From the NCBI RefSeq assembly GCF_013122565.1, contig NZ_CP053258.1: a DNA stretch of 64,000 bases; one strand, written 5' to 3'. This document shows, in pieces, positions 45,619 to 55,967 of the stretch. The position numbers and the translations under genes were made by a program. How positions within the stretch are numbered: position 1 is the stretch's first letter; each line of letters opens with the position of its first letter. Under the pieces are notes generated by a model, which was not told the DNA's origin, ran no database searches, and was given only the letters and a program-made list of their open reading frames with translations. The DNA is from Escherichia coli (GTDB taxonomy: Bacteria > Pseudomonadota > Gammaproteobacteria > Enterobacterales > Enterobacteriaceae).

Positions 45619-46620
45619 TTACTTCGCTGCGGCTTTTTCTCGCAGTGCGCGTTTTTCCTCAGCGCTGAGGAAAGCCATTTCCAGACCATTAATCTGTGCC
45701 TGGCGGATTTGCTCGCGGGATAACCCAGCAGCTGGCGCGGCAACGTTATATTCGTGAATGATATCCACTCCCTGTACGCCGGGATCGTCAGTGTTAATGC
45801 TGGCACGAATGCCATGCTCAAGGAACGTTTTCAGCGGATGGGCAGCCAGCTCTGCCACGGTGCTGGTCTGAATATTGGAGGTCAGACAGGATTCAATACC
45901 AATTTGTTGCTCGGCGAGAAAATCCATCAGCGCCCGATCTTCAATGGCTTTTACGCCATGTCCAATACGCTCCGCCCCCAGTTCACGAATCGCCTGCCAG
46001 ATGCTTTCCGGCCCGGCAGCTTCGCCTGCATGGACGGTAATATGCCAGCCCGCATCACGCGCGCGGTTGAAGTGAGAAAGGAACAGACTTCCAGGGAAAC
46101 CAAGTTCATCACCGGCTAAATCAAGTGCGGTAATCTGGTCACGGTGGGCTAAAAAGGCCTCTAGCTCTTGCTGACAGGCGGCTTCGCCGAAGGTCCGGCT
46201 CATAATGCCGATAAGCTTCGCCTGCACACCAAAGGTGCGGCAACCTTCACGTACGCCATCGATCACCGCTTCGACAACACCTGCAACAGGCAGCTGATGT
46301 GCCATTGCCATGTAGCCTGGTGAAAAACGCAGCTCGACATAGTGCAGGCCGTGACGGGCTGCATCTTCAATGTTTTCAAATGCCACGCGGCGACAAGCAT
46401 CAAGAGAGGCGAGAACTTTAACGCCCCAGTCAAGTTTGGTCAGAAAGCTCACCAGATCGGGTTCGTTGGCAATGACCTGAACGTGGGGAATCAGTGTTTC
46501 CAGGGATTGTGCAGGAAGCGAGATATTATACTGGCGGCCAAGTTCAAGAATGGTCTGGGGACGAATGTTGCCATCAAGGTGGCGATGGATATCAGTTAAT
46601 GGCAGGGTGGTATCAATCAT
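45619..46620 (-). CDS. add: adenosine deaminase
   Basis: ORF track 333 aa; [28 protein letters not shown] matches Add. Confidence 0.95.
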
Positions 46621-47905: not shown

Positions 47906-49498
47906 TTATGCCTGGACAGTATGCATCAGACCGGCCATTTCATCTTTTACTGACTGAACTTGTGGCCCGATAACAACCTGCAGGTTATGTTGATTAAGTT
48001 GTACTACGCCAATTGCCCGATTGTCCTTCAGTGCCTGCACATTAACAAGCGACATATCTTTCACAGACAAACGCAGACGGGTAATGCAGTTATCCAGGCT
48101 AACAATATTGTCGGCACCGCCTAATGCTTCGAGGATTGCAGGAACGTTGTAACCTGATTTACCCGGCGCACCGGCAACGGCTTTTTCGATTGAACTGGCA
48201 ACTTCGCTATCGCGTCCCGGGGTTTTCAGATTGAAGCGGGTGATAGCGAAACGGAAGATGACGTAGTAAACGACAAACCAGATTGCCGCCACCACTGGCA
48301 CCATGTACCACTTGGTTGACAGACCATGCAAAATACCGAACACCACAAAGTCGATGATATTGCCGTCGGTATTACCGATGGTGACGCCGAGCACAGACAT
48401 GACGGTGAAGCCGAGGCCGGTTAACAGCGCGTGGATGACATACAGAACTGGCGCTACGAACAGAAACAGGAATTCCAGCGGTTCGGTCGTGCCACCAACG
48501 ACACAGGCGATCAGGCCAGAAATCAGCAGACCTTTAATTTTATGGCGATTTTCCGGGCGCGCACAGTGAAACATCGCTAACGCTGCACCTGGCAGACCGC
48601 CGAGAAACGCAGGCATTTTGCCTTGCGAAAGGAAACGCGTGGCGCTTTCAGAAAAACCGTGAGTGGTCGGGCAACTCAATTGAGCCTGGAAGATGGTCAG
48701 TGCGCCGCTGACGGTTTGACCGCAGACTTCCTGCGTGCCGCCTGCATCGGTAAAGCGAATTAATGCCACCAGAATGTGATGCAGACCAAACGGCAACAGC
48801 AGACGTTCACCGGTACCAAACAGCATCGGTCCGAAATCACCCGCGCTATTGATCATATGGCCTAAGCCGCTAATACCCATGGCGAAAATCGGCCAGACTA
48901 ATGGAATCACCAGGCCGACAAGGCCCATCACCAGCGAGGAGATGATTGGTACGAAGCGCGTACCTCCAAAGAATGCCAGCGCATCCGGCAGGCGGATATT
49001 ATGGAATCGCTCATGCAGCATCCAGACGATAATACCGGCGATCACCGCACCGAGGATCCCGGTGTCGATCGACTGGATCCCAAGAATGCTCTGGATGTTA
49101 TTGGCTTTCAGAACGGCGGCGTCTGTGGTTGGCAGAATGCCTTTATTGGTCAACCAGAAGTTTACCGCGAGGTTCATTACCGCATAACCGACGAAGCCAG
49201 CGAATGCCGCTACGCCTTTGTTTTCGCGTGCCAGGCCCAGCGGGATGGCGATACAGAACATGACTGGCAGGAAACTAAAAGCAAACGAGCCAATCTTACT
49301 CATCCAGGTAAAGATAGCCTGCAACACGGGGTTGCCCAGGACCGGGATTAGGGTGATGACATCGTGGCTACTAAGGGAACTACCAATGCCGAGCATAATG
49401 CCGCAGAACGACAATAATGCCACGGGTAACATGAAGGTTTTGCCTAACTGCTGGAAGAACTCCCACAGCGTGACTTTCGGTGCTGTTTTCGCCGTCAT
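47906..49498 (-). CDS. malX: PTS EIICB component MalX
   Basis: ATG (plus CAT 49496-49498) gives 530 aa MTAKTAPKVTLWEFFQQLGKTFMLPVALL...; ORF-track 651-aa version is a 5' over-extension into the malI-malX control region. Confidence 0.9.
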   Translation of the reverse strand: MTAKTAPKVTLWEFFQQLGKTFMLPVALLSFCGIMLGIGSSLSSHDVITLIPVLGNPVLQAIFTWMSKIGSFAFSFLPVMFCIAIPLGLARENKGVAAFAGFVGYAVMNLAVNFWLTNKGILPTTDAAVLKANNIQSILGIQSIDTGILGAVIAGIIVWMLHERFHNIRLPDALAFFGGTRFVPIISSLVMGLVGLVIPLVWPIFAMGISGLGHMINSAGDFGPMLFGTGERLLLPFGLHHILVALIRFTDAGGTQEVCGQTVSGALTIFQAQLSCPTTHGFSESATRFLSQGKMPAFLGGLPGAALAMFHCARPENRHKIKGLLISGLIACVVGGTTEPLEFLFLFVAPVLYVIHALLTGLGFTVMSVLGVTIGNTDGNIIDFVVFGILHGLSTKWYMVPVVAAIWFVVYYVIFRFAITRFNLKTPGRDSEVASSIEKAVAGAPGKSGYNVPAILEALGGADNIVSLDNCITRLRLSVKDMSLVNVQALKDNRAIGVVQLNQHNLQVVIGPQVQSVKDEMAGLMHTVQA

Positions 49499-49512
49499 AA
49501 AACGACTCCTCA

Positions 49513-50701
<1,189 letters not shown>

Positions 50702-50812
50702 CCCTCTCTTTATCTGCTATACCTGGTAGTGTCCTTTCCTCAAGGTTAATGATAAAAAATGTGGCACACAGGCGGTGCCTTTTATTTTTACTGAAGTTCA
50801 CAGGAGGTTTAT

Positions 50813-51580
50813 GTGTTTAATTCTGACAACCTGAGACTCGACGGAAAATGCGCCATCATCACAGGTGCGGGAGCAGGTATTGGTAAAGAAATCGCCATTA
50901 CATTCGCGACAGCTGGCGCATCTGTGGTGGTCAGTGATATTAACGCCGACGCAGCTAACCATGTTGTAGACGAAATTCAACAACTGGGTGGTCAGGCATT
51001 TGCCTGCCGTTGTGATATTACTTCCGAACAGGAACTCTCTGCACTGGCAGACTTTGCCGTCAGTAAGCTGGGTAAAGTTGATATCCTGGTTAACAACGCC
51101 GGTGGCGGTGGACCTAAACCGTTTGATATGCCAATGGCGGATTTTCGCCGTGCTTATGAACTGAATGTGTTTTCTTTTTTCCATCTGTCACAACTTGTTG
51201 CGCCAGAAATGGAAAAAAATGGCGGTGGCATTATTCTGACCATCACTTCTATGGCGGCAGAAAATAAAAATATAAACATGACTTCTTATGCATCATCTAA
51301 AGCTGCGGCCAGTCATCTGGTCAGAAATATGGCGTTTGACCTGGGTGAAAAAAATATTCGGGTAAATGGCATTGCGCCGGGGGCAATATTAACCGATGCC
51401 CTGAAATCCGTTATTACACCAGAAATTGAACAAAAAATGTTACAGCACACGCCGATCAGACGTCTGGGCCAACCGCAAGATATTGCTAACGCAGCTCTGT
51501 TCCTTTGCTCGCCTGCAGCCAGCTGGGTAAGCGGACAAATTCTCACCGTCTCCGGTGGTGGGGTACAGGAGCTCAATTAA
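50813..51580 (+). CDS. hdhA: 7-alpha-hydroxysteroid dehydrogenase (SDR family)
   Basis: ORF track 255 aa starting at GTG 50813 after GGAGG; MFNSDNLRLDGKCAIITGAGAGIGKEIA matches HdhA. Confidence 0.92.
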   Translation: MFNSDNLRLDGKCAIITGAGAGIGKEIAITFATAGASVVVSDINADAANHVVDEIQQLGGQAFACRCDITSEQELSALADFAVSKLGKVDILVNNAGGGGPKPFDMPMADFRRAYELNVFSFFHLSQLVAPEMEKNGGGIILTITSMAAENKNINMTSYASSKAAASHLVRNMAFDLGEKNIRVNGIAPGAILTDALKSVITPEIEQKMLQHTPIRRLGQPQDIANAALFLCSPAASWVSGQILTVSGGGVQELN

Positions 51581-51680
51581 TACACTAACGAACCGGTAAA
51601 CAGCCGTATGTGTTGTTTACCGGGATAGCGTGTGCAATTCATCAACGTCTCTGCTAAACAACTGGCAGCCAAATTACGGC

Positions 51681-51696
51681 TATTGGTTAACCAATA
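51681..51696. promoter_or_regulatory. 16-bp perfect palindrome upstream of uidR, candidate UidR (TetR-type) operator
   Basis: TATTGGTTAACCAATA; half-site ATTGGTTAAC recurs upstream of uidA at 52725-52735. Confidence 0.45.
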
Positions 51697-51808
51697 ACTG
51701 GATGAAAAGCATACGAATAGAGTGTGCCTTCGCACTATTCAACAGCAATGATAGGCGCTCACCTGACAACGCGGTAAACTAGTTATTCATGCTAACTATA
51801 ATGATTTA

Positions 51809-52399
51809 ATGATGGATAACATGCAGACTGAAGCACAACCGACACGGACCCGGATCCTCAATGCTGCCAGAGAGATTTTTTCAGAAAATGGATTTCACAG
51901 TGCCTCGATGAAAGCCATCTGTAAATCTTGCGCCATTAGTCCCGGGACGCTCTATCACCATTTCATCTCCAAAGAAGCCTTGATTCAGGCGATTATCTTA
52001 CAGGACCAGGAGAGGGCGCTGGCCCGTTTTCGGGAACCGATTGAAGGGATTCATTTTGTTGACTATATGGTTGAGTCTATTGTCTCTCTCACCCATGAAG
52101 CCTTTGGGCAACGGGCGCTGGTGGTCGAAATTATGGCGGAAGGGATGCGTAACCCACAGGTCGCCGCCATGCTTAAAAATAAGCATATGACGATCACGGA
52201 GTTTGTTGCCCAACGGATGCGTGATGCCCAGCAAAAAGGCGAAATAAGCCCAGAAATCAACACGGCAATGACTTCACGTTTACTGCTGGATCTGACCTAC
52301 GGTGTACTGGCCGATATCGAAGCGGAAGACCTGGCGCGCGAAGCGTCGTTTGCTCAGGGATTACGCGCGATGATTGGCGGTATCTTAACCGCATCCTGA
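51809..52399 (+). CDS. uidR: TetR-family repressor of the glucuronide (uid) operon
   Basis: ORF track 196 aa; TetR HTH; upstream of uidA. Confidence 0.9.
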   Translation: MMDNMQTEAQPTRTRILNAAREIFSENGFHSASMKAICKSCAISPGTLYHHFISKEALIQAIILQDQERALARFREPIEGIHFVDYMVESIVSLTHEAFGQRALVVEIMAEGMRNPQVAAMLKNKHMTITEFVAQRMRDAQQKGEISPEINTAMTSRLLLDLTYGVLADIEAEDLAREASFAQGLRAMIGGILTAS

Positions 52400-52734
52400 T
52401 CCTCTTATTTCGCGGGCTGGTGATAACTGTGCCCGCGTTTCATATCGTAATTTCTCTGTGCAAAAATTATCCTCCCCGGGTTTGGAGAATTCCCCCCAAA
52501 ATATTCACCATAGCCATATGTCATGAGAGTTTATCGTTCCTAATACGCCCGAACGAACGTTCGATTGCTTATTTTATGGCTTCTGTCAACGCTGTTTTAA
52601 AGATTAATGCGATCAATATCACGCTGTGGGTATTGCAGTTTTTGGTTTTTTGATCGCGGTGTCAGTTCTTTTTATTTCCATTTCTCTTCCATGGGTTTCT
52701 CACAGATAACTGTGTGCAACACAGAATTGGTTAA

Positions 52735-55967
<3,233 letters not shown>

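Follow-up and report, generated by a model that had tools for sequence, protein, structure and literature searches.

A probable UxuR operator box upstream of the glucuronide repressor gene uidR in Escherichia coli

UxuR sites and the palindrome upstream of uidR

UxuR is a GntR-family (FadR-subfamily) repressor of glucuronate and fructuronate catabolism, and its locus is unlinked to the uid genes. In a survey of GntR-family motifs, the sites of the FadR subfamily were described as A/T-rich palindromes with TKGT/ACMA boxes and a GT-AC spacing of 3 nt in the majority of groups (ExuR among them) or of 2 nt in a few (UxuR among them) (PMC4494728). The UxuR site AAATTGGTATACCAATTT was used in a biosensor, where its placement between the -35 and the -10 gave UxuR-dependent, ligand-relieved repression of the reporter (PMC8092373). 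Purified UxuR was also reported to bind the gntP/uxuA spacer in genomic SELEX. It has further been stated that uidR is among the members of the UxuR regulon, and that glucuronate, like a deletion of uxuR, activates uidABR (PMC10016265). In K-12, the gntP/uxuA spacer carries the boxes ATTGGTCAACCATT and TGTGGTTAACCAAT, and the region upstream of uxuR carries TTTGGTTGACCAGT and ACTGGTCAATCAAA, 20 bp apart. When the gntP/uxuA and uxuR regions were compared without any uid sequence, the best word common to both was AAAyTGGTCAACCA.

To compare these sites with the uid locus, a 64-kb stretch of DNA (the window) was analysed; the features discussed are collected in Table 1. The sequence TATTGGTTAACCAATA, located at 51681-51696 in the spacer between hdhA and uidR, is a perfect 16-bp palindrome, identical to its own reverse complement, and an exact search returned a single copy of it in the window. 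The original prediction had described such a palindrome about 110 bp upstream of the uidR start and had noted that its half-site recurs in the uidA promoter. All of this was borne out: the uidR ATG lies 112 bp past the end of the palindrome (120.5 bp from its centre), and the motif was found again as ATTGGTTAACTAGT and AAAGGTTGACCAGT in front of uidA, where the stretch of the uidR box that recurs at 52726 is ATTGGTTAAC. The downstream gene was confirmed as that of the TetR-family glucuronide repressor; UidR homologues carry the Pfam domains PF00440 and PF16859, and UidR matches the solved UidR/GusR entries PDB 6AYI ('UidR', E = 1.5e-124) and 6AYH.

Table 1. Coordinates of genes, boxes and promoter candidates in the window
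Feature	Position	Strand	Basis or remark
malI	49673-50701	+	ORF
hdhA	50813-51580	+	ORF
Weak companion box ACTGGCAGCCAAAT, 4/12 specified bases mismatched	51661-51674		Centre 21 bp upstream of main box; low confidence
UxuR-type box, 14-bp core ATTGGTTAACCAAT (ATTGGT-TA-ACCAAT)	51682-51695		Half-sites, conservation, matrix score
Published guess at a constitutive uidR promoter, TTAACC-17-TATACG (K-12), TTAACC-17-CATACG here	51687-51715	+	PMC3946193
Alternative candidate uidR promoter TAGGCG-17-TAAACT	51752-51780	+	Best-conserved candidate
Candidate promoter TAAACT-16-TATAAT	51775-51802	+	Overlaps TAGGCG-17-TAAACT
uidR (gusR), TetR-family glucuronide repressor, 196 aa	51809-52399	+	ORF; annotated uidR in E. 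coli genomes
GAACGAACGTTCGATTG ('type B'), GAAyGAACGTTCGrTTG, core GAACGTTC	52551-52567		Candidate TetR-type GusR/UidR operator (O1)
uidA-promoter box 1, ATTGGTTAACTAGT, UxuR-type, 2 mismatches	52726-52739		2nd matrix score in window
uidA-promoter box 2, AAAGGTTGACCAGT, UxuR-type, 3 mismatches	52746-52759		4th matrix score in window
uidA	52786-54597	+	ORF
uidB	from 54594	+	ORF

In order to determine how much weight the palindromy itself can bear, the background was estimated from order-1 shuffles of the 64-kb window. Perfect 16-mers occurred 1.3 +/- 1.2 times per shuffle, and 72% of the shuffles contained at least one; the real window contains three, namely the one upstream of uidR, one within a coding region and one in the malX/malI spacer. 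Palindromy by itself is thus at chance level. On the other hand, a match without mismatch to the 12 specified bases of the box is expected only about 0.004 times per window, and it is the specific sequence, together with its conservation, that stands above chance.

This specific sequence is that of a UxuR site. Both 6-bp half-sites (ATTGGT and ACCAAT) are the same as those of AAATTGGTATACCAATTT, and the central dinucleotide alone differs. The box has the A/T-rich TKGT/ACMA form of the FadR subfamily (tat-TGGT-TA-ACCA-ata) and the 2-nt spacing (GT-TA-AC); when a 3-nt-spaced version was sought in the hdhA-uidR spacer, the best fits had 4 mismatches. The hexuronate loci of K-12 were then searched with ATTGGTNNACCAAT, to which the box upstream of uidR has no mismatch. 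It was the sole perfect site, the gntP/uxuA and uxuR sites of K-12 having 1-3 mismatches. A full-text literature search for TTGGTTAACCAA returned nothing relevant.

A matrix was also built from the four K-12 uxu-locus sites; the lgoR/lgoD spacer, a reported UxuR target in which no recognisable box was found, was left out. The box upstream of uidR ranked first in the 64-kb window, ahead of both uidA boxes. Its score was 16.4, as against a mean best score of 12.8 in 20 shuffles and a highest one of 19.8; since the matrix has just four training sites, this score is not significant alone, and we therefore relied on co-location and conservation. The third rank was taken by a UxuR-type box with 2 mismatches, ATTGGTCAACCAGA, within the malX coding region (49145-49158), which is conserved in K-12; about two 2-mismatch matches to the box are expected per window by chance.

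The box upstream of uidR resembles the K-12 gntP/uxuA and uxuR boxes in its half-sites (aTTGGT/ACCAAt), its 2-nt GT-AC spacing, its A/T-richness, its position in a regulatory region of the hexuronate pathway and its conservation across Enterobacterales. It differs from them in being perfect and apparently single: it has at most the weak partner 21 bp away and no clear tandem pair at 20 bp, and it lies upstream of, rather than inside, the best-conserved core promoter candidate. The two boxes before uidA share both the motif and the locus, and their equivalents before gusA are conserved in five genera. Unlike the uidR box, they are imperfect, paired at 20 bp (the tandem spacing also seen at the K-12 uxuR promoter) and close enough to the start codon (within 60 bp) to cover the core promoter; from the end of box 2 to the uidA ATG there are 26 bp. 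The uidR box has no such imperfections and lies farther from its gene.

Conservation of the box in Escherichia and in other genera

Conservation was assessed in a sample of 11 Escherichia sequences, consisting of the window, K-12, six more E. coli lineages picked to span the range of identities, two divergent lineages and E. whittamii. Within this sample, TGGTT[A/G]ACCAAT was unchanged in all 11 sequences. The 8 nt adjoining the core on the right differed in most of them, and the left flank was also variable. The outermost pair of the 16-mer varies as well (K-12 reads ...CCAATT), and the conserved and presumably functional unit was consequently taken to be the 14-bp core. The weak companion box ACTGGCAGCCAAAT was kept in all aligned Escherichia sequences but one. 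A megablast of 60 bp against 5,426 E. coli genomes showed that the neighbourhood is polymorphic, with identity bands from 80% to 100%.

Several other features of the region were noted in the course of these comparisons. The 8 nt directly 3' of the palindrome (51697-51704) form a polymorphism hot spot, with 10 forms in the 11 sequences. The segment 51560-52800 matched 5,419 complete E. coli genomes at 97.8% identity or less, and K-12 at about 96%, indicating that the window comes from a somewhat divergent Escherichia lineage. In Escherichia sp. MOD1-EC7003 (locus L007, 4589-5100) and 'E. coli' SCPM-O-B-8794 (locus L008, 4586-5100), uidA has been lost and full-length uidR has been kept together with the upstream UxuR-type box, so that uidR appears to be an orphan repressor gene there. 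The GusR-type palindrome (described below) is decayed in L007 and deleted in L008, in which the two uidA-proximal boxes persist. Some E. coli records contain fusions of an SDR (hdhA-like) N-terminus with the C-terminal domain of UidR, which points to deletions that removed the hdhA-uidR spacer and the palindrome in it; in strain D8, other sequence replaces what lies upstream of mid-uidR. The fusions and the D8 variant could serve as natural variants with which to test the box.

To extend the comparison beyond Escherichia, UidR homologues with 49-66% identity were used to reach the gus loci of Enterobacter, Salmonella, Cedecea and Yersinia. The UidR scan of genome contigs yielded three Escherichia loci only, and these distant gus loci were obtained through protein homologues and exact-sequence look-ups. 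UxuR-type boxes were found directly before gusA in all four genera. In Enterobacter and Cedecea the box ATTGGTTGACCAAA was also present 77-78 bp before gusR, despite the divergent orientation of gusR and gusABC. No box was found before gusR in the gus loci of Salmonella and Yersinia, though gusR is present in both. As to gene arrangement, gusR and gusABC point away from each other in Enterobacter, Salmonella and Cedecea (L009, L011 and L013) and are co-directional in Escherichia and Yersinia (L014). One Enterobacter gus copy (L009) is flanked by IS elements and another (L010) adjoins an IS and partition-type genes, which suggests mobility of these copies.

UxuR homologues were used in the same manner to reach the uxu loci of E. 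albertii, Edwardsiella tarda, Erwinia amylovora and Pragia fontium. In each of these four taxa, boxes with 0-2 mismatches were observed in the uxuA, uxuR or gntP (transporter) regulatory regions, the box of the Edwardsiella tarda uxu locus being perfect (ATTGGTTGACCAAT); uidR has been reported to be absent from E. albertii. The presence of the box beside uxu genes in other taxa indicates that it travels with UxuR-controlled genes and not specifically with UidR.

A separate candidate operator for GusR/UidR and the competing assignments

Two GusR sites, O1 and O2, were drawn upstream of gusA by Pellegrino et al. (2023), who deleted what they term, with reference to Little et al. 2018, the "high-affinity GusR O1 site"; the glucuronide response was lost. 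We placed O1 indirectly by mapping the published deletion primers, which correspond to about 52445-52608 of the window. The deleted region includes the palindrome GAACGAACGTTCGATTG and no ATTGGT..ACCAAT box, and both uidA-proximal boxes stay in the construct. The motif upstream of uidR thus falls outside the DNA needed for GusR/glucuronide control. The palindrome GAACGAACGTTCGATTG is followed by a conserved TATTTT...TGTCAAC (together 52551-52590). Each examined gus locus in which gusA is retained yielded one copy of GAAyGAACGTTCGrTTG; in Escherichia, Enterobacter, Salmonella, Cedecea and Yersinia, its distance to the gusA ATG is 217-229 bp. No copy was found elsewhere in the 242 kb of fetched sequence, the element being absent from the uxu loci and, in Escherichia, from the region before uidR. 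Wherever gusA is retained, it is accordingly this palindrome, and not the box upstream of uidR, that accompanies gusR and is confined to gus loci.

Taken as a site, the palindrome at 52551-52567 is likely the TetR-type GusR/UidR operator O1. The uidR box resembles it in being a palindromic repressor-type site in the same locus and regulatory circuit; the sequence of O1 is unrelated, however, and it lies about 220 bp before gusA and never at uxu loci. Simple repressor sites are seldom so far from the start codon as GAACGAACGTTCGATTG is from that of uidA.

These data bear directly on the original prediction, according to which the palindrome upstream of uidR would be an operator of the TetR type, recognised by a UidR dimer and sharing its motif with the uidA promoter; such a site would give autoregulation of uidR. 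One half of that proposal stands, in that a conserved palindrome of the repressor-operator type does occur with its motif again at the uidA promoter; the assignment to UidR found no support, and we consider it unlikely. In its favour, UidR belongs to the TetR family, whose members frequently autoregulate and recognise palindromes of about 15 bp; both uid regulatory regions contain the motif, and two GusR sites have indeed been drawn upstream of gusA. The uxu and uid repressors were reportedly called 'interchangeable' and 'cooperative' in the titles of genetic work from the 1980s, and, going by the title of a 1983 paper on interchangeable repressors for the uxu and uid operons, some action of UidR at such boxes is possible. 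The motif is nevertheless not specific to gus loci, as it occurs at the unlinked uxu promoters of K-12 and in four other taxa; its half-sites and 2-nt spacing carry the signature of UxuR. The motif search in other gus loci, which had been named as a check, went against UidR, for the box is missing before gusR in Salmonella and Yersinia. The element that occurs once per gusA-retaining gus locus is the other palindrome, and the deletion of the O1 region abolished the glucuronide response though both uidA-proximal (type-A) boxes remained. It is also improbable that ExuR is the main user of the box, or that UxuR-ExuR heterodimers alone use it and UxuR homodimers do not. Such usage would explain the absence of the site from the SELEX performed with UxuR alone. 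The ExuR boxes, as sites of a paralogous repressor, are related TKGT/ACMA palindromes. They differ from the uidR box in their outer bases (e.g., AGTGGTATAACAAAT) and in the 3-nt GT-AC spacing reported for ExuR sites (PMC4494728). The ExuR-controlled uxaC/exuT, exuR and uxaB regions of K-12 carry 3-nt-spaced GTGGTAnnACA-type boxes, and no 2-nt-spaced box within 3 mismatches was found in them.

That the palindrome arose by chance, or belongs to the 3' end or terminator of hdhA, and plays no part in regulation is very improbable. About one perfect 16-bp palindrome is expected per window, this one lies about 60 bp past the hairpin after hdhA (51593-51623), and no strong promoter overlaps it; such an origin would, however, be difficult to reconcile with an invariant core between variable flanks, and with the retention of the box in Enterobacter and Cedecea, where it precedes gusR with no hdhA alongside. 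A terminator or hairpin role was likewise rejected, as the palindrome is A/T-rich, loopless and without a T-run, and persists away from hdhA. A search of 49000-55000 against Rfam gave no match, after which an RNA reading was dropped.

Predicted action of UxuR on uidR

The palindrome upstream of uidR is probably a UxuR-type operator box through which UxuR would act on uidR. A UxuR dimer, possibly mixed with its paralogue ExuR, would occupy both ATTGGT/ACCAAT half-sites when fructuronate or glucuronate is lacking, and the bound protein would lower uidR transcription; on arrival of fructuronate or glucuronate, UxuR would come off the DNA. In this manner the glucuronide repressor gene would be put under the hexuronate regulator, as would uidABC through the tandem boxes at 52726 and 52746. 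We infer both the physical binding of UxuR at the box and the way in which binding reduces transcription; no binding experiment on the box upstream of uidR was found in the literature. In the genomic SELEX with UxuR alone, the gntP/uxuA spacer was the sole reported target, and the RegulonDB list for UxuR quoted there omits uidR. In this respect the uidR box is unlike the gntP/uxuA box, and its omission counts mildly against strong binding of UxuR. A link from UxuR to uidR is already known, at the level of regulon statements rather than of exact coordinates. The site was most likely first predicted by Suvorova et al. 2011.

In order to see how the box might act, the promoter candidates of uidR were inspected. 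A peak of RNA polymerase SELEX was reported in the hdhA-uidR spacer, and the hexamers TTAACC-17-TATACG were proposed for it (PMC3946193). The -35 TTAACC of this promoter is the centre of the palindrome, and its -10 is poorly conserved in Escherichia (CATACG, TATACG, CTTACG, TAAACG or TTCATG). A scan with the sigma-70 consensus found no promoter on the uidR strand, and a laxer scan gave several weak candidates, none of them decisive. The best-conserved candidate was TAGGCG-17-TAAACT; Enterobacter, Salmonella and Cedecea have a counterpart of it, TAGGCG-17-TACACT, about 30 bp upstream of gusR. The distance from the end of the core to this candidate is 56 bp, as compared with 17 bp to the equivalent in Enterobacter, and the centre of the box is near -98 relative to it in Escherichia and near -60 in Enterobacter. 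The box overlaps only the promoter guess with the poorly conserved -10 and none of the best-conserved candidates, and this geometry is a point against the assignment to UxuR. Bound UxuR might occlude the distal promoter, which has the TTAACC of the box centre as its -35; otherwise, it might bind cooperatively or form a loop and so act on the conserved proximal promoter from some 100 bp farther upstream, perhaps with the weak box 21 bp upstream. The segment of about 70 bp upstream of uidR (51721-51790) is near-invariant in Escherichia, including E. whittamii, and more conserved than the neighbouring spacer; it contains a small inverted repeat (GTGC-CTTC-GCAC) along with TAGGCG-17-TAAACT.

Instead of simply occluding a promoter, the box might serve from afar as an auxiliary site, the conserved uidR promoter candidate being about 100 bp downstream of it and the uidA boxes about 1.04 kb away; it would then take part in a long-range loop of UxuR or in physical cooperation with UidR at 52551-52567. 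We regard this as unlikely. If true, it would amount to cross-family cooperativity and would explain the old reports of 'cooperative' and 'interchangeable' uid and uxu repression.

An operator for UxuR at this position would match each site with its proper regulator: hexuronate status would be reported, via UxuR, by the ATTGGT..ACCAAT boxes, and the GAACGTTCG element would likely be the glucuronide-specific GusR site. This is relevant to the reuse of the gus control region as a glucuronide-responsive switch, in microbiome-targeted dCas9 systems and biosensors, and to the interpretation of uidA-based assays for detection of E. coli. It would also illustrate a cascade in which UxuR, the repressor of the downstream pathway, controls the repressor gene of the upstream pathway, uidR, as well, which is nothing new in kind.

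Two other palindromes were noted in the window. A perfect 16-bp palindrome, GATAAAACGTTTTATC, is located at 49549-49564 in the divergent malX/malI spacer, and it looks like the operator of MalI (LacI family). A perfect 20-bp palindrome, TTTCCTCAGCGCTGAGGAAA, was found at 45654-45673 in the 3' part of a minus-strand ORF of 333 aa (45619-46620), which is presumably add, from the gene order in K-12.
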